Of a stretch of DNA of 64,000 nucleotides, positions 3,809 through 63,883 are shown piece after piece. A program made the position numbers and the translations under genes. The stretch is from Flavobacterium sp. UBA6135 (GTDB lineage: Bacteria; Bacteroidota; Bacteroidia; Flavobacteriales; Flavobacteriaceae). Location: contig NZ_DIVJ01000023.1 of assembly GCF_002428305.1 (NCBI RefSeq), positions 108,489 to 172,488 of the forward strand. The letters are read 5' to 3'. The notes beneath the pieces were generated by a model. It was not told the origin of the DNA, did not search any database, and saw only the letters and a program-made list of their open reading frames with translations. Numbering within the stretch: the first letter of the stretch is position 1; each line of letters starts with the position of its first letter.

Positions 3809-4828
3809 ATGAAAAGAAAAGTTACCCTAAAACAGATTGCAAAAGAACTTGATGTATCAATTTCAACCGTTTCAAAATCATTAAAAGACAGTACAGAAAT
3901 CAGTGAAGATACTCGCTTAAAGGTACAAGCTTTTGCTAAACTTTATAACTACAAACCAAACAACATTGCTTTAAGTTTAAAGAATAAAAAAACCAAAACA
4001 ATTGGTGTTATTATTCCGGAGATTGTACATCATTTTTTTGCAACAGTTATCAGTGGCATTGAACATCTTGCTAATGAAAACGGATACAACGTTATTGTCT
4101 GTTTGTCTGACGAATCTTTTGATAAAGAGGTTATCAATATGGAAATGTTGGCAAATGGAAGTATTGACGGATTCATCATGTCTTTGTCAAAAGAAACGCA
4201 ACAAAAAAGAGATTTTCATCACATCACAGAAATTATAAATCAAGGAATGCCGGTTGTAATGTTTGACAGGGTTTCAAACGATATTTTATGCGACAAGGTA
4301 ATTATTGATGATAATCTAGCTGCTTTCAACGCTGTTCAAACCTTGATTGAAAAAGGAATGAAGAAAATAGCATTAATCACAACTGTTGATTACGTTAGCG
4401 TTGGGAAACTGAGAACTGACGGCTACATTAAAGCATTAAAAACTAACGATTTAAAAGTAAATAACGAACTAATATTAAAAATTGAAGACATTGACAACTG
4501 TGAAAATCTAATTGAGGATTTAATTAAAAACAATAAAATTGATGCTGTTTTTGCGGTTAATGAACTATTTGCAGTAACTGCAATTAAAGCAGCTTCAAAA
4601 CACAATATTAAAGTTCCAGAGGAAATCTCGGTCATTGGATTTACCGATGGCATTATCTCCAAATATGCTTCACCAAGCATCACTACTGTTAGTCAAAACG
4701 GAATTAAAATGGGAGAAAAAGCAGCTAAAATGTTAATCGAAAGATTAGAGAGTGATGAATGGGATGACGAACACTTCAAAACTGAAGTTATTGAAACACA
4801 TCTGGTGGAAAGAGAATCCACAAAATAA
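3809..4828 (+). CDS. LacI-family transcriptional regulator of the maltose/starch locus
   Basis: HTH VTLKQIAKELDVSISTVSKSL, hinge YKPN, periplasmic-binding-protein-like effector domain. Confidence 0.95.
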   Translation: MKRKVTLKQIAKELDVSISTVSKSLKDSTEISEDTRLKVQAFAKLYNYKPNNIALSLKNKKTKTIGVIIPEIVHHFFATVISGIEHLANENGYNVIVCLSDESFDKEVINMEMLANGSIDGFIMSLSKETQQKRDFHHITEIINQGMPVVMFDRVSNDILCDKVIIDDNLAAFNAVQTLIEKGMKKIALITTVDYVSVGKLRTDGYIKALKTNDLKVNNELILKIEDIDNCENLIEDLIKNNKIDAVFAVNELFAVTAIKAASKHNIKVPEEISVIGFTDGIISKYASPSITTVSQNGIKMGEKAAKMLIERLESDEWDDEHFKTEVIETHLVERESTK

Positions 4829-4880
4829 ATTTTCTATTAAAATATTTAAGCCTAATAAATTTTTCGAATAGAAAAAAATA

Positions 4881-4888
4881 TATATTTG
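4881..4888 (+). promoter_or_regulatory. Bacteroidetes -7 promoter element for the MFS-pgmB-GH operon
   Basis: TATATTTG matches TAnnTTTG, about 95 nt upstream of the ATG. Confidence 0.65.
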
Positions 4889-4900
4889 TAATCAGTATTA

Positions 4901-4966
4901 ATCAAAACTTGTATTTTACTTCGAACCCACAAGTTTTGATAAGCCTTAAACGCTTATCGTTTTATT
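4901..4966 (+). ncRNA. Structured 5' leader or candidate sRNA with two overlapping hairpins
   Basis: 12-bp perfect stem ATCAAAACTTGT/ACAAGTTTTGAT (4901-4940); 7-bp stem GATAAGC/GCTTATC (4938-4958) followed by GTTTTATT. Confidence 0.5.
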
Positions 4967-4984
4967 AACCAATAAATTACGATA

Positions 4985-6331
4985 ATGGAAAAGCGTAAGT
5001 TAAGTTTCTGGGAAATTTGGAACATGAGTTTCGGTTTCTTGGGGATACAAATGGGTTTTGCCCTCCAAAATGCAAATGCCAGTAGAATTCTTCAAAAGTT
5101 TGGTGCCGATGTTCATGAACTTTCGTGGTTTTGGATTATTGCTCCACTCACAGGATTAATTGTTCAACCCATTATTGGTCACTACAGTGATAATACTTGG
5201 GGTCGCTTTGGAAGAAGAAAACCTTTTTTCTTACTTGGTGCTGTTCTTGCCTCTGTCGGGTTAATTTTAATGCCGCAATCTGAAATTTTCATTGCCTTTT
5301 TACCTGCTCTTTGGGTTGGTGCCGGAATGCTTATGATTATGGATGTTTCATTTAACATTGCTATGGAACCTTTTCGTGCTTTGGTTGGAGACAATCTTCG
5401 AACGGATCAAAGAACATTGGGTTTTAGTGTGCAAACTGCTTTAATTGGAATGGGAGCTGTTGTTGGTTCAATTCTACCTTCTTTTTTAAGATGGGTTGGT
5501 GTTACAGGTGAAACCGAAAGCGGAATTCCCAATGATTTAATTTGGTCTTTTATTATTGGTGCAGCTATTTTAATAATTACCATTTTAGTTACTGTAATTA
5601 CTACGCATGAATATTCGCCACAAGAATTAGAAAATTTTACAGACGAAAAAGCTCATAAAGATGCCATTGGTGATGAAAAACCTTCACGGTTGTTAGACAT
5701 TTTTGAAGATTTTGCTAAAATGCCAACCACTATGCGTCAATTAAGTATGGTTCAATTCTTTTCTTGGTTTGGTCTTTTCGGAATGTGGGTGTTTACAACT
5801 CCTGCCATTGCTCAACACATTTATGGTTTGGCATCAGATGATGTGAAAAATCCATTATTTGATGACGCTGGAAATTGGGTTGGTGTTCTTTTTGGCGTTT
5901 ACAATTTCGTTTCGATGATTTTTGCGTTCACACTTCCTTACATTGCCAAACAAATTGGACGAAAAAAAACACACGCAACTTCTCTAATTATTGGAGGAAT
6001 CGGATTAATTTCTATCTATTTTATGCCAAATAAAGATGCTCTGATTTTTTCTATGATTTGTATAGGAATTGCTTGGGCGAGTATTTTATCAATGCCTTAT
6101 GCCATTCTTGCCGGATCTATTCAACCCAAGAAAATGGGAGTTTACATGGGAATTTTTAATTTCTTTATCGTAATTCCACAAATTATTAATGCCCTCATTG
6201 GAGGATTACTTGTTAAATATTTATATAATGATCATGCCATTTTTGCTTTGGTAACTAGTGGTGTCAGTTTTTTAATTGCTGCAGCCTTAGTTTACAAAGT
6301 AAAAGATGTTGATGATGTAGTACAAAACTAA
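4985..6331 (+). CDS. MFS maltose/maltodextrin transporter (SLC45/GPH-like)
   Basis: About 12 hydrophobic segments, QPIIGHYSDNTWGRFGRRKPF motif, position in the maltose locus. Confidence 0.9.
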   Translation: MEKRKLSFWEIWNMSFGFLGIQMGFALQNANASRILQKFGADVHELSWFWIIAPLTGLIVQPIIGHYSDNTWGRFGRRKPFFLLGAVLASVGLILMPQSEIFIAFLPALWVGAGMLMIMDVSFNIAMEPFRALVGDNLRTDQRTLGFSVQTALIGMGAVVGSILPSFLRWVGVTGETESGIPNDLIWSFIIGAAILIITILVTVITTHEYSPQELENFTDEKAHKDAIGDEKPSRLLDIFEDFAKMPTTMRQLSMVQFFSWFGLFGMWVFTTPAIAQHIYGLASDDVKNPLFDDAGNWVGVLFGVYNFVSMIFAFTLPYIAKQIGRKKTHATSLIIGGIGLISIYFMPNKDALIFSMICIGIAWASILSMPYAILAGSIQPKKMGVYMGIFNFFIVIPQIINALIGGLLVKYLYNDHAIFALVTSGVSFLIAAALVYKVKDVDDVVQN

Positions 6332-6987: not shown

Positions 6988-7015
6988 TAAAATTTTAATG
7001 ATTTCGAATTTTAAA

Positions 7016-7047
7016 AACTTGAAACGTTAAACTTGAAACTTTTAAAC
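7016..7047 (+). repeat. Degenerate heptamer array (TTGAAAC-type) before the GH65 start
   Basis: ttgaaac gttaaac ttgaaac ttttaaac. Confidence 0.7.
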
Positions 7048-7055
7048 TAAAATTA

Positions 7056-28230: not shown

Positions 28231-28707
28231 ATGAACAAATTTCTTTTTTATTCTTTTTTTTTCCTCTTGGCCTCCTGCCAATACTTTGAAAAGCGTGTGC
28301 CTTCCGAAGAAGAATTGCTTCAGGAACGCTTAAAACAAATTGATTGGAAAGAAGTTACTGATTATCCCTCTGTAAATGCTTGTGATAGTTTACTGGATAA
28401 AGAGCAAAAAAAGGCGTGTTTCTTTCAATTTTTGACTGAACTAATTCAACAGAAAATCGCAACAGATTCAACAGAAAATAGTGCTGAGATCTTTGACACC
28501 TTAAATGTTTTGGTCACTGTTTTTCCGGATGCCAACATTACATTTGAACCTCAATTCCCGTCAGATAGCACCAATTACAATAAAGCTAAAGTTGATAGCA
28601 TTCTTAAAAACAGACTCACAGATTTCCCTAAAATCGAACCCGCTCAGAAAGAAGGAATTCCAGTAAAAACACAATTTATTTTACCTATTCTTTTAAAAGC
28701 GGATTAA
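28231..28707 (+). CDS. Conserved hypothetical lipoprotein (TonB-C-terminal-like tail); ATG 28231 preferred to 28159
   Basis: Lipobox LASC; C-terminal PAQKEGIPVKTQFILPI. Confidence 0.75.
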   Translation: MNKFLFYSFFFLLASCQYFEKRVPSEEELLQERLKQIDWKEVTDYPSVNACDSLLDKEQKKACFFQFLTELIQQKIATDSTENSAEIFDTLNVLVTVFPDANITFEPQFPSDSTNYNKAKVDSILKNRLTDFPKIEPAQKEGIPVKTQFILPILLKAD

Positions 28708-29795
28708 GAATTGAATGTTCTCCCCTTCCACTCATAGGTTCCAAACAAAGAATACAATGCAACGGCTGAACTGAAAAACGGATAAACTAAAGCCGTCAAT
28801 AAAGTATTCTTCATTTTTATTTTATAAAATCGTGCGGTTTGATTGGCTACTAGTAAATCAGAAATGACTTTTAAAAGAAGTAAAATTATCATTTCATAAA
28901 ACCCAAAGAAAAGTAGAAATAAGGAAATGATAAAAGCTAAATTTCCTAAAAAAACTGTCAACGCCACAAATTTTCCGAAACCGGATGAATACGCTTTTGA
29001 TTTTCCGGCCCAACGAATGCGTTGCTGAAAAAGTTCTGTCCAACTTTCTGCCGAATTGGTTGTAACATGAAAATCTTTTTTGAGTAAAAATCCAACTTCA
29101 TCCGGAAAATTTTTAACAGCTTTTTGCAATAAAAACACATCGTCACCACTAGCAATTTTGTCATTTCCATCAAAAGCATTAAGTTGTTTATACAGATTTT
29201 TGGAATACCCAAAATTAGCTCCATTGCACATGAAAGCTAGATTAAAATCAAAACTACCTATAGTAACGGCTTGCAAACTAATCATTTCAATTTGCTGAAA
29301 GTCATTGAGAAAATTAGATTTACTTTTAAAAAAAACCGGTCCGCAAACCATTTGTTTTTTCGTGTTATGAATGTAATAATTCAAATCCAAAAGCCAGTTT
29401 TCAGGAACTATACAATCAGCATCGGTGGTGATAATCCAATCAAATTTTGAATGCTGAATTGCAGTTTGAATCGCATCTTTTTTTGGTGAGTTAGAAATTC
29501 TTTGATTCACAATCATTTGAACTTGAAACTTGAAACTTGAAACTTGAAACTTTTCCATCGACTCATCATCAACTAAAATCACCTCAAAATTTTCAACCGG
29601 ATAATTTAATTTTTCAATCGATTTTAAAAGAAATGGAAGATTTACAGCTTCATTTCGAAATGGAACAACAATGGAGTATGATAACTTTTCAGCGGATGAA
29701 TCTTCATTGGATTTTGGCACTTTTTTAAATCCCATCCAAAAGAAGAGCATCAAAAAAACATAAACCGAAATCGCTAAAATTAGTAAATACATCAT
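28704..29795 (-). CDS. GT2 glycosyltransferase, membrane-anchored
   Basis: VPFRNE, VDDES, TTDAD, NGAN, SGDD, QRIRW motifs. Confidence 0.92.
   Translation of the reverse strand: MMYLLILAISVYVFLMLFFWMGFKKVPKSNEDSSAEKLSYSIVVPFRNEAVNLPFLLKSIEKLNYPVENFEVILVDDESMEKFQVSSFKFQVQMIVNQRISNSPKKDAIQTAIQHSKFDWIITTDADCIVPENWLLDLNYYIHNTKKQMVCGPVFFKSKSNFLNDFQQIEMISLQAVTIGSFDFNLAFMCNGANFGYSKNLYKQLNAFDGNDKIASGDDVFLLQKAVKNFPDEVGFLLKKDFHVTTNSAESWTELFQQRIRWAGKSKAYSSGFGKFVALTVFLGNLAFIISLFLLFFGFYEMIILLLLKVISDLLVANQTARFYKIKMKNTLLTALVYPFFSSAVALYSLFGTYEWKGRTFNS
29517..29550 (-). repeat. Heptamer tandem repeat (GTTTCAA)x4 plus one degenerate unit, inside the GT2 CDS
   Basis: Encodes FQVSSFKFQVQ in frame. Confidence 0.95.
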
Positions 29796-30724
29796 AGCTC
29801 TAATTTTGGTTTAAATTTCAGTACAAAAAGGCTTCCAATCAAAACCGGAATAACCAAATTCAAAAGCCACATTAATGTTGTTATAGAAACAATTGTCCAT
29901 TGATTAACCCCTAATTTTCCGAACAAAACAACGGCGAAACTTCCTTTTATCGCCACATCCATCAAATGAATATTCGGAACAATGGAGGCTAAAAAATACA
30001 TTGAAAAAATAGTTGCCAAAGCTAAAGAATACGTAATTTCAACACCAAAAATCAACAATAAAAAATAGCATTGATGGGAGAAAATCAGAAATCGAATAAC
30101 CGATAATTGTATAGTTGTTTTGAGCGAATTTCTTGGAAAGGTTCTAATTTTCTGAATTAAGTTTTCAACTGAAAAACCATAAATGGAAATCTTTTTTCTA
30201 AAAATTAAAAAGACGAAAAAAATCAAAAAAATCAGAATTAAAACAAAGCTGATTTTATAACTGAAATAATCATAAAACAACCCTGTAATAAACAATCCAA
30301 AAACGCCAAAAAATGAAGTTGCAGCCATTTGAGAACTGTTTCCGATAAAATTCAAAAGAATAATTTTTTTGGTTTCTGATTTTGGAAAATATAACATTTT
30401 GGCTCCGTATTCCCCCATTCGATTAGGTGTAAAAACCGAAGCAGTTAATGACCCTAACGACTGAACCGCAGCTTCTTTAAACGAAATCTTATAAAAAGTA
30501 TTCACTAAGTTTTGCCATTTCAAAATCTCAAAAAACCAGTTTAAAACGCTTAAAAATACAATTCCTACTAAACTGAAAAATGTAAATTTAGTCGAGACAA
30601 GTTGCCAGTCGTTCAAATCTTTTTTGTTCAATTCAACATACAAATAATAAAAAGCAAAGCCCACAATCAAAAGTTTGACGAGAACCAGCAGGAATTGTTT
30701 AGCTTTGTAAGGAATTGAATTCAT
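29792..30724 (-). CDS. Lysylphosphatidylglycerol-synthase TM / flippase-like membrane protein
   Basis: NWFFEILKW, FTPNRMGEYG motifs; hydrophobic; ATG 30724 (track uses TTG 30730). Confidence 0.8.
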   Translation of the reverse strand: MNSIPYKAKQFLLVLVKLLIVGFAFYYLYVELNKKDLNDWQLVSTKFTFFSLVGIVFLSVLNWFFEILKWQNLVNTFYKISFKEAAVQSLGSLTASVFTPNRMGEYGAKMLYFPKSETKKIILLNFIGNSSQMAATSFFGVFGLFITGLFYDYFSYKISFVLILIFLIFFVFLIFRKKISIYGFSVENLIQKIRTFPRNSLKTTIQLSVIRFLIFSHQCYFLLLIFGVEITYSLALATIFSMYFLASIVPNIHLMDVAIKGSFAVVLFGKLGVNQWTIVSITTLMWLLNLVIPVLIGSLFVLKFKPKLEL

Positions 30725-30742
30725 CAACACAAATAAACAAAC

Positions 30743-30770
30743 TTTAAACCTGAAACTTTAAACTTTAAAC
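30743..30770 (+). repeat. Heptamer array before the ruvC start
   Basis: tttaaac ctgaaac tttaaac tttaaac. Confidence 0.85.
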
Positions 30771-30778
30771 AAAAAAGA

Positions 30779-31333
30779 TTGGCAAACGAACGCATCATCT
30801 TAGGCATCGACCCCGGAACCACCATCATGGGATTTGGTTTAATTAAAGTCGTGAACAAAAAAATGGAATTCATTCAGTTGAACGAATTGATTTTGAGTAA
30901 ATACGACGACCATTATACCAAGTTAAAGGTCATTTTTGAACGTACCATCGAGTTGATTGAAACCCATCATCCGGACGAAATTGCGATTGAAGCTCCATTC
31001 TTTGGTAAAAACGTCCAATCGATGCTCAAACTCGGACGAGCTCAAGGCGTGGCAATGGCAGCAGGATTATCGCGACAAATTCCGATTACCGAATACGAAC
31101 CTAAAAAGATAAAAATGGCTATCACCGGAAACGGAAACGCCAGTAAAGAGCAAGTGGCTAAAATGTTGCAACAATTGTTAGGCTTGAAAGAATTACCTAA
31201 AAATTTAGATTCTACCGATGGTTTGGCGGCGGCAGTTTGTCATTTTTTTAATTCAGGGAAAGTTGTTGGTACTACTAGCTATTCCGGATGGGATGCATTT
31301 GTAAAACAGAATGAAACTAGAGTTAAGAAATAG
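30779..31333 (+). CDS. ruvC: Holliday junction resolvase RuvC
   Basis: ILGIDPG, IAIE, D.TDGLA motifs; TTG start. Confidence 0.97.
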   Translation: MANERIILGIDPGTTIMGFGLIKVVNKKMEFIQLNELILSKYDDHYTKLKVIFERTIELIETHHPDEIAIEAPFFGKNVQSMLKLGRAQGVAMAAGLSRQIPITEYEPKKIKMAITGNGNASKEQVAKMLQQLLGLKELPKNLDSTDGLAAAVCHFFNSGKVVGTTSYSGWDAFVKQNETRVKK

Positions 31334-31360
31334 TGGTCAGTGGTCAGTTTTTAGTGATCA
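31320..31360 (+). repeat. 41-bp imperfect direct repeat, left copy (contains the ruvC stop)
   Basis: 34/41 identical to 31778-31818. Confidence 0.85.
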
Positions 31361-31422
31361 GTGAATCCAAGCATCATTATACTTTTATAAGAACTTTATA
31401 ATTTATTAACCATTCATAATAT

Positions 31423-31791
31423 ATGAAATTTCAAGATTTATTAGCCTATAAAAAATCATTTTCTTTAGCAATGAACATTTTTGAATTATCAAAATCATTT
31501 CCAAAAGAAGAGATTTATTCTTTGACCGATCAAATCAGGCGAAGCTCAAGAAGTGTTTCAATAACAATTGCGGAAGCTTATAGAAAAAGAGAATATCCGA
31601 AACACTTCCATAGCAAATTAACAGATGCCGATGCAGAAAACTCTGAAACACAAGGATGGCTAGAGTTTTGTTTTGCTTGTAAATACATTTCTGAAGAAAA
31701 ATTCATTGAATTGACAAACTTTAGTTTAGAAGTTGGAAAGTTGATAAACTATATGATGCTAAATCCTGAAAAATTTGGAGTTAAAAAATAG
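31423..31791 (+). CDS. Four-helix-bundle protein (23S rRNA-IVP / TIGR02436-like family)
   Basis: FQDLLAYKKS...FPKEE.YSLTDQIRRSSRSV..IAE.Y...ENSETQ.WL pattern. Confidence 0.92.
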   Translation: MKFQDLLAYKKSFSLAMNIFELSKSFPKEEIYSLTDQIRRSSRSVSITIAEAYRKREYPKHFHSKLTDADAENSETQGWLEFCFACKYISEEKFIELTNFSLEVGKLINYMMLNPEKFGVKK

Positions 31792-31818
31792 TGGGCAGTA
31801 ACCAGCTTTTAGTGGTCA
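31778..31818 (+). repeat. 41-bp imperfect direct repeat, right copy (contains the four-helix-bundle stop)
   Basis: Stop TAG at the same offset as in the left copy. Confidence 0.85.
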
Positions 31819-31824
31819 ATAATA

Positions 31825-31895
31825 ACTGAATACTAAAATACTGAAATCTGAACACTGAATACTGAATACTAAAAACTGAACACTGAACACTAAAA
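31825..31895 (+). repeat. Array of about 10 ACTGAA(C/T)-type heptamers abutting the hemW ATG
   Basis: actgaat actaaaat actgaaa tctgaac actgaat actgaat actaaaa actgaac actgaac actaaaa ATG. Confidence 0.92.
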
Positions 31896-33029
31896 ATGTC
31901 CGGCATCTACATCCACATACCTTTTTGCAAGCAAGCTTGTCATTACTGTGATTTTCACTTTTCAACTTCAATGAAGAAAAAAGACGAAATGGTTTTGGCT
32001 TTAGCAAAAGAAATTCAGTTGCGAAAAGAAGAATTCAAAAATGATATAGTTGAAACCATTTATTTTGGTGGCGGAACACCATCAGTATTAGCGATTGAAG
32101 ATTTGAGATTGTTGATTGATGAAGTTTATACAAACTACAACGTCATTGAAAACCCAGAGATTACTATAGAAGCGAATCCTGACGACTTATCGAATAACCG
32201 AATAATCGAACTATCCAACAATCGAATTAACCGCCTCTCCATCGGCATTCAATCTTTTTTTGAAGAAGATTTGAAAATGATGAATCGTGCTCATAATGCG
32301 GAAGAAGCTAAAAAATGTTTGGAAGAAGCAACTCAACATTTTGATAACATTTCCCTCGATTTGATTTATGGAATTCCGGGAATGAGTAACGAAAAATGGA
32401 TTCAAAATATTGAAACTGCTTTATCGTTTGGCATTCCGCATATTTCGAGTTATGCATTGACCGTTGAGCCGAAAACCGCTTTACATTCGTTTATTCAAAA
32501 AGGAATAATTCTACCACCAGAAGATGAAGTTGCCCAAGAACATTTTGAAATTTTAGTAGAAAAACTGGAAGAAGCCGGATTTATTCATTATGAATTGTCC
32601 AATTTTGGTAAGGAAAACTATTTCTCTAAAAACAATTCGAGTTATTGGTTGGGAAAAAAATACATTGGTATTGGTCCGTCAGCACATAGTTATGATGGCG
32701 AAAAACGAGGTTGGAATGTATCGAATAACACGTTGTATATCAAATCCATTCAAGATGGAAAATTGCCGTTTGAAACCGAAATTTTATCAAAAACCGATCG
32801 ATATAACGAATATGTGATGACGGGATTACGAACGATTTGGGGAATTTCGTTAGATAGAATTCAAACCGAATTTGGACAAACCTATTTAGATTACCTCAAC
32901 CAACAAGCCGCCAAATACATAGAAGATCATTTGCTTTTTGTAGATGAAAACATTCTGCGAACCACACGGAATGGAAAGTTTTTGAGTGATGGGATTGCAT
33001 CAGACTTATTTTTATTAAATTTGGAGTAA
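31896..33029 (+). CDS. hemW: Radical SAM heme chaperone HemW
   Basis: YIHIPFCKQACHYCDF, YFGGGTPS, YELSNF. Confidence 0.92.
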   Translation: MSGIYIHIPFCKQACHYCDFHFSTSMKKKDEMVLALAKEIQLRKEEFKNDIVETIYFGGGTPSVLAIEDLRLLIDEVYTNYNVIENPEITIEANPDDLSNNRIIELSNNRINRLSIGIQSFFEEDLKMMNRAHNAEEAKKCLEEATQHFDNISLDLIYGIPGMSNEKWIQNIETALSFGIPHISSYALTVEPKTALHSFIQKGIILPPEDEVAQEHFEILVEKLEEAGFIHYELSNFGKENYFSKNNSSYWLGKKYIGIGPSAHSYDGEKRGWNVSNNTLYIKSIQDGKLPFETEILSKTDRYNEYVMTGLRTIWGISLDRIQTEFGQTYLDYLNQQAAKYIEDHLLFVDENILRTTRNGKFLSDGIASDLFLLNLE

Positions 33030-33030
33030 A

Positions 33031-33113
33031 ATGGAACGCTGATTTTACGGATGCTAGCAACGCTGATTAATTCGTAAATATCCGCGTTAGAATATCCAGT
33101 AAACCCGCGTTCA
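33031..33113. repeat. Degenerate inverted-repeat intergenic element
   Basis: aacgctgatt x2 and ccgcgtt x2; ends tggaacgc/gcgttcaa. Confidence 0.65.
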
Positions 33114-33116
33114 ACT

Positions 33117-33881
33117 ATGCTAGCAACAATAACCCACCAAAATAAAACCTTCCAAGTAGATTTATCAAAACCCATTGATATTTCGCTTCCATTATCCAAT
33201 ACTGAAAACAATCCGATTGCGTGGTACATTGAAAAACCACAAATTGAACCCGTTCGTTTTGGTTCGTGGGTAGGAAGTGTAAAAGGTGGAGCTACAACTA
33301 ATTTTAACAACATTTTTTTCAATCCTCACGGACACGGGACGCACACGGAATGCTTGGGACATATTACGAAAGAATTTTTCAGCATCAATCAAGCACTGAA
33401 AACATTTTTCTTTACAGCAGAATTGATTTCCATCCAACCCGAAAAACAAGGTGATGATTTTGTGATTACGAAAAATCAAGTTGAAAAAGTGTTAGGTAAT
33501 GAAATTCCGGCAGCAATTATCATTCGAACATTACCTAATTTATCAGAAAAAAAATCTAAAAATTATTCGCATACCAATCCGCCTTATTTGCATGAAGAAG
33601 CGGCAGTTTTCATTCGTGAAAAAGGCATTCAACATTTGCTTATCGATTTACCAAGTGTTGACAAAGAAAAAGACGAAGGCAAATTATTAGCTCATAAAGC
33701 CTTTTGGAATGTGAAAGATGTGAATAATTTGAATGAAGATGCACGAAAAAATGCTACGATAACGGAGTTGATTTTTGTTGATGATGTTGTGAAAGATGGT
33801 TCTTATTTGTTGAACTTGCAGATTGCTTCGTTTGAAAATGATGCTTCACCTTCGAAACCAATCCTTTTTCAAATTTTATAA
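33117..33881 (+). CDS. Cyclase-family metal hydrolase (kynurenine-formamidase-like)
   Basis: HGHGTHTE and IDLPSVD motifs. Confidence 0.85.
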   Translation: MLATITHQNKTFQVDLSKPIDISLPLSNTENNPIAWYIEKPQIEPVRFGSWVGSVKGGATTNFNNIFFNPHGHGTHTECLGHITKEFFSINQALKTFFFTAELISIQPEKQGDDFVITKNQVEKVLGNEIPAAIIIRTLPNLSEKKSKNYSHTNPPYLHEEAAVFIREKGIQHLLIDLPSVDKEKDEGKLLAHKAFWNVKDVNNLNEDARKNATITELIFVDDVVKDGSYLLNLQIASFENDASPSKPILFQIL

Positions 33882-56287: not shown

Positions 56288-56317
56288 GTTTCAGGTTTCA
56301 AGTTTCAAGTTTCAAGT
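56288..56317 (+). repeat. (GTTTCAA)-heptamer array directly after the rimM stop
   Basis: gtttcag gtttcaa gtttcaa gtttcaa gt. Confidence 0.9.
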
Positions 56318-63681: not shown

Positions 63682-63692
63682 TCTATTTTAAG

Positions 63693-63748
63693 TTGCTAAG
63701 ATTCTGAGTTACTGAGATTCTGAGTTACTGAGAAGCTGAGTTGCTGAG
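63693..63748 (-). repeat. Array of seven octamers (nnnCTGAG on the + strand) before the FNR start
   Basis: ttgctaag attctgag ttactgag attctgag ttactgag aagctgag ttgctgag. Confidence 0.92.
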
Positions 63749-63883
63749 TTCTTTTTAGGTTTACTTGGCGAAAGTAGTTTTTCTTTTTTCTTTTGTATAT
63801 GACATTTATCAGTTGGCACAAATTGCGTAAGTGATTGTTGCGGAAAGCCCAAAGCTACGAAGGAACTTGCAGAATTGAAGCAA

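Follow-up and report, generated by a model that had tools for sequence, protein, structure and literature searches.

The ruvC-hemW junction of Flavobacterium sp. UBA6135, studied here within a 64,000-nt stretch of contig NZ_DIVJ01000023.1 (positions 108,489 to 172,488, hereafter the window, with a GC content of 33.8%), carries a small gene whose product belongs to a family of four-helix-bundle (4HB) proteins. This gene lies in the loop of a predicted hairpin, both arms of which consist of heptamers repeated in tandem. The same layout recurs in every 4HB context that we retrieved, the hairpin is retained by related species that lack the gene, and an unrelated small protein family shows a like layout with different arms.

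Genes and arrays at the ruvC-hemW junction

The upstream gene, ruvC (30779..31333, + strand), encodes a protein of 184 aa ending in ETRVKK* (PF02075, 1.7e-41; TIGR00228, above cutoff), and its TAG stop codon (31331-31333) is also the first triplet of the left heptamer array, L1. An AT-rich spacer in which no promoter-like site was found (31363..31422, +) leads from L1 to the open reading frame (ORF) of the 4HB gene (31423..31791, +), which encodes an Avd-like protein of 122 aa with the tail NPEKFGVKK* and a TAG stop at 31789-31791. The downstream anchor is hemW (31896..33029, +; 377 aa; TIGR00539, 3.5e-85, above cutoff), and all three genes are co-oriented. A scan of the ruvC-to-hemW stretch for sigma-70-like promoters and intrinsic terminators gave none, a Bacteroidota-type promoter not having been formally scanned for.

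The 4HB protein is a member of both PF05635 (9.5e-30, 103.4 bits for a cutoff of 33.8) and TIGR02436 (9.9e-27, 93.3 bits for a cutoff of 24). Its AlphaFold2 model (pLDDT 98) consists of four helices at residues 7-23, 28-54, 59-85 and 91-113. When this model was submitted to Foldseek, the top matches were 2RLD and 2GSC (template-modelling (TM) scores of 0.8-0.9), followed by Avd, the accessory protein of diversity-generating retroelements (DGR; 4DWL, TM 0.78/0.88), and the DGR ribonucleoprotein 8UBE. The first of these structures, which carries the label 'S23 ribosomal protein family', was also matched by phmmer (2.9e-9). Weak profile matches were found to PF22296 (1e-7), NF033474 (3.8e-5) and PHROG 3206 (6e-11), and the Avd equivalog level was not reached (NF033474, 24 bits versus a cutoff of 80; PF22296, 32.8 versus 40). 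No reverse transcriptase (RT) and no template/variable repeat pair accompanies the gene, whose neighbours are ruvC and hemW, no transposase lies within or next to the unit, no recombinase lies inside it, and no target-site duplication is evident. An Rfam search of 30500-33500 at E<=1 gave no RNA family match, rRNA included. Searches by tblastn and with the family hidden Markov model, over the window and ~600 kb of fetched Flavobacterium loci, revealed no 4HB copy other than those at ruvC-hemW. The possibility that the unit belongs to a phage or a defence island was considered and rejected: viral contigs, searched with a 30-sequence family alignment, contained no relatives, and PADLOC gave no defence-system match.

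The left array L1 (31331..31362, +) is made of NNN(C/T)AGT units, namely TAGTGGT, CAGTGGT, CAGTTTT, TAGTGAT and a terminal CAGT; Tandem Repeats Finder reports it with a period of 7 (AGTGGTC, 4.6 copies at 31332-31363). Its 29-mer is identical in three distant lineages (L089, L101 and L066; L numbers designate the loci retrieved for comparison). The right array R (31823..31895, +) contains about 10 ACTGAAC, ACTGAAT or ACTAAAA units and ends 1 nt before the hemW ATG (31896). A second, degenerate array of the left type, L2 (31789..31818, +; TAGTGGGCAGTAACCAGCTTTTAGTGGTCA), is lineage-specific and begins at the 4HB stop codon. Thus, as the original prediction had described, heptamers follow both the ruvC and the 4HB stop codons and an array of the reverse-complement type runs up to hemW. 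The NNNCAGT array starts at the stop codon of one neighbour and the ACTGNNN array ends at the start codon of the other. A further feature, to which the original prediction gave no emphasis and which carries more weight than the direct repeat described below, is that L1 (31331-31362) and the distal part of R (31861-31892) form an inverted repeat of 32 nt, 88% complementary, that brackets the whole ORF. In the minimum free energy fold of 31325-31900 (dG -133 kcal/mol, z -5.0), L1 is the outer 5′ arm and is joined with distal R in a stem around the ORF, the proximal R units being paired with L2. The L and R arrays are therefore predicted to form a stem of ~30 bp enclosing the 4HB ORF.

CAGT-type arrays of at least 3 units occur in the 64-kb window at the 4HB gene only. 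Between the near-identical metagenome contigs L089/L090 and L091/L092, the R array differs by whole ACTGAAC/ACTTAAA units, and this comparison of sequences indicates ongoing slippage at the population level.

Inverted arrays around other 4HB genes and around PF13366 genes

Seven other 4HB contexts, picked by sequence similarity and forming a small sample rather than a genome-wide census, were compared with the window. In all seven, an array begins at the stop codon of the upstream gene or close to it, and its reverse complement extends to the following start codon or nearly so; thus inverted arrays abut the stop and start codons of the neighbours in 8/8 independent contexts. The units differ from one context to another: ACAGT/ACTGT at an X-4HB-folD locus (L094/L097), CAGTAAA/TGTCTAT on an 800-bp contig (L093), GGCAGTA/CTGCCTA in L102, TAGGCAG/CTGCCTA in L103, at least 15 NNNCAGT units at the ruvC-hemW junction of a taxon with 80% RuvC identity (L105), nine TTGCGAG/CTCGCAA-type units at an rluA-like-4HB-ffh locus (L099), and 8-mers in L104 (CTCACCGA/TCGGTGAG). 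The complementarity score between the upstream and downstream flanks was at least 15 in six of the eight contexts and at most 12 for 49 control genes of the window. In our search, the family amounts to 5,932 clusters at 50% identity scattered across unrelated loci. Its occurrence at many unrelated intergenic sites, in every context retrieved beside arrays adjacent to stop and start codons, and the lack of a recombinase inside the unit support one part of the original prediction.

A similar layout was found for a gene of another family. In about 17 loci (for example L046, L004, L018, L002 and L037), a PF13366 gene (PDDEXK_3, 125 aa) is located between hemW and a cyclase gene; in L089 it occupies the region 4608-5114. 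These genes are flanked by inverted CGCAAAG-type arrays abutting the stop and start codons, the left arm (TTAACCGCAAAGGTCGCAAAGG...) lying directly after the hemW stop and the right one (...CTTTGCGAACTTTGCGGTTAA) directly before the cyclase ATG. The corresponding site of the window (33030-33116) is empty, and the hairpin that it contains is less stable and not of this type (dG -23, z -2.1).

Heptamer arrays of yet another type, AAACTTG/GTTTCAA, are also present in the window. Two are in the forward orientation just 5′ of start codons (7015-7048 and 30739-30770, the latter before ruvC), a third (56288-56317) is reversed and directly follows a TAG stop, and a perfect 4.7-unit array of this family lies inside the coding frame of a glycosyltransferase on the minus strand (29520-29552). 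None of them has a 4HB gene nearby. Near the end of the window, at 63691-63752, an array with an 8/16-nt period (AGTTACTGAGATTCTG, 3.9 copies) has units containing ACTGAG/CTGAGTT, similar to the right-arm type.

The 41-nt direct repeat and the C-terminal tail

The original prediction was built on a direct repeat, which we confirmed. Its first copy (31320..31360, +) takes in the final 11 coding nt of ruvC together with the TAG and most of L1; its second (31778..31818, +) takes in the final 11 coding nt of the 4HB gene together with the TAG and L2. The copies are 458 nt apart and identical at 34/41 positions, and the repeat is unique in the window, where the next best 41-mer reaches 26-28/41 on either strand for a background of 11.1 +/- 2.8. 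It is equally correct that both stop codons sit at the same offset in the repeat and that both proteins end in VKK* (RuvC in ETRVKK*, the 4HB protein in KFGVKK*). These features had been read as an in-frame copy of the ruvC 3′ end, carried by a small cassette as its hallmark. The homologs point elsewhere.

Among the 120 closest 4HB homologs, the most frequent tails are EKFGVKKE (52), PEKFGVKK (18) and EKFGVKKQ (10). Representatives at 45-74% identity still end in NPEKFGVKTGN, FGVKIAK, FGVKIN or FGVKKWANS, and two of those are located at other loci, X-4HB-folD and pseudouridine synthase-4HB-ffh. Because the tail persists in these distant representatives, judging from the alignments FGVK(K) is the C-terminal motif of the 4HB family itself and was not copied from ruvC. 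RuvC, for its part, ends in R(V/I)KK* also where the junction is empty. The ancestral 4HB tail at the ruvC locus, as deduced from the homologs, is GVKKE*, one codon longer than that of RuvC. The 29-nt L1 is shared without change by a third lineage, L101, in which the protein ends in GVKKE* and L2 is missing; the aligned TAG and the L2 array of the window/L089 lineage are for this reason regarded as secondary. Indeed, L2 is present in L089/L100, L088 and L063 and absent from L101, L046, L066, L040 and others, that is, from most filled loci, and can hardly be the hallmark of the unit. Furthermore, in L088 and L063 an L2-like array follows the gene and the repeat excludes the coding ends (GVRKE* TGA and GVKKE* TGA). 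Finally, we found no copy of the 3′ end of the upstream gene in any of the seven other contexts (L094, L099, L093, L102, L103, L104 and L105), where the original prediction would have such a duplication. Taken together, these comparisons lead us to view the 41-nt repeat as the product of a chance likeness between FGVKK and RVKK, of the loss of a terminal Glu codon and of the secondary acquisition of L2, and not as an insertion footprint. The likeliest origin of L2 is a copy of the stop codon and L1 placed behind the A-run of the Lys codons.

Recombination between L1 and L2 could mediate a deletion. The 104-nt junction that it predicts had no exact match in metagenome contigs, a weak negative, since only two contigs of the lineage, both of them filled, were located there when a degenerate anchor from the ruvC 3′ end was used in a second scan. 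The closest empty relative, L035, has arrays unrelated to those of the window and is therefore not an L1×L2 product.

Two further loci show repeats involving gene ends. In L074 (3540-3600), the final 16 nt of ruvC (GAAAATCCGCAAATGA) form a tandem repeat that grades into an array, and in L104 (570-720) the 4HB gene is followed by three ~55-nt copies of its own 3′ end plus an array. Arrays can thus apparently grow from, or over, the 3′ ends of genes.

Occupancy and descent of the ruvC-hemW site

A RuvC scan with one genome per species, in which the closest matches all came from Flavobacterium, gave 80 Flavobacterium-type loci, 75 of them with both ruvC and hemW. The spacer contains the 4HB gene in 12 of these 75 species, is empty (0-150 nt) in 50 and carries other inserts in 13. 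The existence of filled and empty alleles, another element of the original prediction, is thereby established, and on the RuvC+HemW tree filled and empty species are intermingled in almost all subclades of the main clade. The basal lineages have neither the 4HB gene nor the hairpin. Five of the 12 4HB copies are disrupted (L004, L045, L048, L057 and L068).

Most empty spacers are single hairpins, with both arms formed by tandem heptamer arrays, and in many cases the stem extends from the ruvC stop codon to within a few nt of the hemW ATG. Folding gave z < -3 for 24 of the 38 spacers that measure 40-170 nt, and the spacer of L003 reaches -40 kcal/mol. The arms remain complementary although their units differ (CAGT/ACTG, TTTGAAA/TTTCAAA, AATTAGA/TCTAATT and TTAGCGA/TCGCTAA). 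CAGT arms are present on both sides at 15/17 filled and 15/47 empty sites (Fisher p=1e-4, uncorrected for phylogeny). On the host tree, L035 is placed between the window and L089, with its unrelated array type, and L053, the empty sister of the filled L054, also carries a different type; as these two cases show, simple deletion does not explain every empty hairpin.

The junction is a general variable spot, since 13 of the 75 species have unrelated inserts of 0.4-2.2 kb in place of the 4HB gene. These encode a KAP-like NTPase of ~700 aa (L001, L026 and L071), lipoproteins of ~290 aa (L013, L017, L031, L041, L047, L059, L062 and L076) or a cupin-like protein (L034 and L047). In L071 and L001, the NTPase gene is still preceded by remnants of a CAGT left array; none of ten such larger inserts has both CAGT arms.

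All close homologs for which contigs were retrieved sit between ruvC and hemW. In the 4HB tree these copies form one clade, and the paralog at the folD locus, 74% identical, branches immediately outside it. The nucleotide distances between the ruvC-locus copies are correlated with the hemW distances (Mantel r=0.53, p=2e-4). Intact orthologs evolve with dN/dS ~0.11, and dS exceeds 1 between species and is saturated. Because of this monophyly, the Mantel correlation, the low dN/dS and the saturated dS, the data fit one old insertion followed by mostly vertical descent under purifying selection, with many independent losses. Frequent movement of the cassette is not supported by this pattern.

Some signs of exchange were nevertheless detected. 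Between the window and L089, a tract of ~150-250 nt inside the 4HB gene (about 31406-31655) is 98-100% identical, with about 150 nt at 100%, whereas ruvC and hemW are 85-93% identical, and the overall distance is 3.8% for the 4HB gene versus 13.2% for hemW. In a sliding-window comparison, this tract is not bounded by L1 and L2. A recent transfer of the whole cassette between the two was therefore considered and discarded, only the internal tract being near-identical; the pattern is suggestive of a local exchange between lineages, by recombination or conversion, or else of nucleotide-level constraint. In addition, L028 groups with L081 in the 4HB gene tree and not in the host tree.

A separate feature of the window/L089 comparison concerns the region upstream of ruvC (28700-30700). 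The two minus-strand genes found there, which encode a glycosyltransferase and an LPG-synthase-like membrane protein, have only 55-70% DNA identity, and the boundary with the 85-93% identical ruvC-hemW segment is sharp and lies at the ruvC promoter region.

Discussion

PF05635/TIGR02436 is a very large family without known function, known mainly from the intervening sequences (IVS) of 23S rRNA and from its similarity in fold to Avd. Tandem heptamer arrays beside start and stop codons have been described separately, likewise without known function. Our data link the two, and in the open-access papers that we searched we found no earlier connection between PF05635/TIGR02436 and heptamer arrays. 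We propose that the 4HB gene is probably the ORF of an IVS-like hairpin element residing outside rRNA, at ruvC-hemW, which was gained rarely and has often been lost. The element would have entered the junction once, in the ancestor of the main Flavobacterium clade, and would then have been inherited mostly vertically under purifying selection. Repeated inactivation and deletion would have left ORF-less hairpins, or hairpins whose place has been taken by arrays of other types.

What the element may do is suggested by the anatomy of the locus and by the IVS and Avd precedents. The unit would be co-transcribed with ruvC and hemW, and the long L:R duplex could act as a double-strand-RNA processing site, in the way that the IVS of 23S rRNA is cut by RNase III. 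Once the stem was cut, ruvC, 4HB and hemW would be on separate messages. The protein, as an Avd-like nucleic-acid-binding bundle, would most likely bind its flanking heptamer arrays.

Several points weigh against this proposal. The outer stem is imperfect, as the GGTCAGT units of L1 face ACTGAAC units with one G-A mismatch per unit. The window holds AAACTTG/GTTTCAA-type arrays without any 4HB gene, TAACTGA-type arrays are reported to precede start codons generally in several phyla (PMC4679880), and part of the association between arrays and 4HB genes could thus reflect a general placement of arrays in intergenic spacers. The window/L089 tract and the grouping of L028 with L081 imply that some lateral exchange occurs, and the different array type of L053, empty sister of the filled L054, sits uneasily with simple decay. 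Moreover, co-transcription, cutting by RNase III and binding of the arrays by the protein are steps that we infer by analogy.

How else could the locus be explained? The original prediction saw in it a transposase-free cassette of 458 bp that integrates through the VKK-TAG-left array sequence, duplicates the 3′ end of its host gene and excises as a circle. In favour of this view, the direct repeat does exist and has no equal elsewhere in the window, L1-like and L2-like repeats flank the gene in L089/L100, L088 and L063 as well, filled and empty alleles exist, and duplications of an ORF 3′ end with its stop and array are known at L074 and L104. However, the VKK tail is intrinsic to the family, with GVKKE* as its ancestral form, most filled loci lack L2, the L088 and L063 repeats stop short of the coding ends, and the seven other contexts show no duplicated 3′ end. 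Monophyletic, mostly vertical copies with saturated synonymous sites, an excision junction missing from the metagenome contigs (two of the lineage, both filled) and the unrelated arrays of the closest empty relative, L035, also speak against such a cassette, which we consider very improbable. A different form of mobility would be an active or recent element whose arrays are terminal inverted repeats and whose ORF-less hairpins resemble miniature inverted-repeat transposable elements (MITEs), moving by array homology or with the help of a trans-acting enzyme, which might be a hairpin-specific transposase, a PD-(D/E)XK nuclease, or an RT with the Avd-like protein. Here the type of arm goes with the family of the ORF, CAGT with 4HB and CGCAAAG with PF13366; the 74%-identical paralog at X-folD has CAGT-type arms, solo hairpins of like type exist at ruvC-hemW, lateral exchange has left local signs, and an older hypothesis assigned a role in mobility to IVS ORFs (quoted in PMC4990558). 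We nonetheless find recent activity doubtful, as no transposase or RT lies in or beside the unit, no target-site duplication is evident, the monophyly and saturated dS of the ruvC-locus copies make movement rare at best, no relatives occur on viral contigs and no recent insertion was caught.

At the other extreme, the 4HB gene could be an ordinary lineage-specific accessory gene, and the arrays a generic, slippage-driven feature of spacers, to be expected around whatever gene is inserted in them. Inverted arrays on both sides of the gene in 8/8 4HB contexts and around none of the 49 control genes of the window are difficult to accommodate in this way. So are the restriction of CAGT-type arrays in the window to the 4HB gene, the absence of paired CAGT arms from the larger inserts at the very same junction (0/10), the 5,932 clusters over unrelated loci, and a second small family, PF13366, with an arm type of its own. 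It is true that the window has arrays of another type without 4HB gene (at 7015, 30739 and 56288), that MacGregor 2015 found arrays upstream of many unrelated genes (PMC4679880) and that vertical inheritance under purifying selection is what an ordinary gene would show; on balance we hold this explanation to be unlikely. For the window, the unsupported mechanism of 3′-end duplication and circle formation gives way, in the reading that we prefer, that of an IVS-like hairpin element, to rare gain, mostly vertical descent and frequent decay.

This reading may be extended, more tentatively, beyond ruvC-hemW. The PF05635 and PF13366/PDDEXK_3 genes might be the ORFs of a new class of minimal elements with heptamer-array inverted repeats, placed between stop and start codons. 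The NNNCAGT-, TAACTGA- and STRR-type (short tandemly repeated repetitive) arrays of Bacteroidota, Cyanobacteria and Beggiatoaceae would then be ORF-less remnants or targets of such elements, the IVS of 23S rRNA a special case that landed in an rRNA hairpin loop, and the Avd-like protein would recognise its cognate array. We regard this generalisation as possible and, for the moment, speculative. If the link holds genome-wide, it would provide a testable function for both a protein family and a class of repeats. If true, the candidates would be a partnership between protein and repeat, the processing of RNA where operon genes meet, or a small element of a new kind, and the IVS elements would be one instance of a wider class.

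Comparison with known systems

The 4HB unit shares features with several known systems. Like integron cassettes, it is small, with a promoter-less ORF in the same orientation as its neighbours and an imperfect inverted repeat; unlike them, it has neither integrase nor attI/attC sites and is solitary between core housekeeping genes. Like REP (repetitive extragenic palindromic) sequences, REPINs and MITEs, it belongs to the short intergenic repeats that form hairpins, and ORF-less hairpins occur where relatives bear the ORF. However, no RAYT (REP-associated tyrosine transposase) or other transposase is linked to it, its arms are tandem arrays and not a unique palindrome, and there is no target-site duplication.

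The heptamers themselves have counterparts elsewhere. The STRR heptamers of cyanobacteria, CCCCAGT/CAACAGT, are the same kind of intergenic heptamer repeat. TAACTGA tandem heptamers were reported by MacGregor 2015 in Beggiatoaceae, Cyanobacteria and Bacteroidetes, upstream of the start codons of many unrelated genes, their function being given as unknown (PMC4679880). The arrays around the 4HB gene resemble them in being tandem 7-mers with an ACTGA/TCAGT core and indels in steps of 7 nt, and in their placement, since forward arrays end one to a few nt before a start codon (R and the hemW ATG) and reverse arrays follow a stop codon (L1 and the ruvC TAG). In that study, by contrast, the arrays are treated as direct repeats and translational signals, and it reports neither inverted hairpin pairs nor a link to PF05635 ('four helix' has 0 occurrences; PMC4679880).

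With Avd, the accessory protein of DGRs, the 4HB protein shares the four-helix-bundle fold. It differs in scoring below the family cutoffs, in having neither an adjacent RT nor template/variable repeats, and in lacking relatives on viral contigs.

By analogy of protein and architecture, the closest known system is the 23S rRNA IVS with an S23p/PF05635 ORF, as found in Coxiella, Leptospira and others. The Coxiella IVS is 428-444 nt long and has a 28-bp stem made of terminal inverted repeats, with the S23p (PF05635) ORF in the loop; the stem is cut by RNase III, and the origin and mobility of the IVS are described as unresolved (PMC4990558). The 4HB unit differs in its position between protein-coding genes and not in helix 25 or 45 of 23S rRNA, in its arms, which are tandem heptamer arrays reaching from stop codon to start codon, and in the nature of the evidence, cleavage by RNase III having been seen in Coxiella and the present unit being known from its sequence. 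The two nevertheless have the same protein family and a comparable size (~460-560 nt here versus 428-444 nt in Coxiella), a stem of ~28-32 bp built from terminal inverted repeats with the ORF in its loop, a patchy distribution and a tendency of the ORF to decay.

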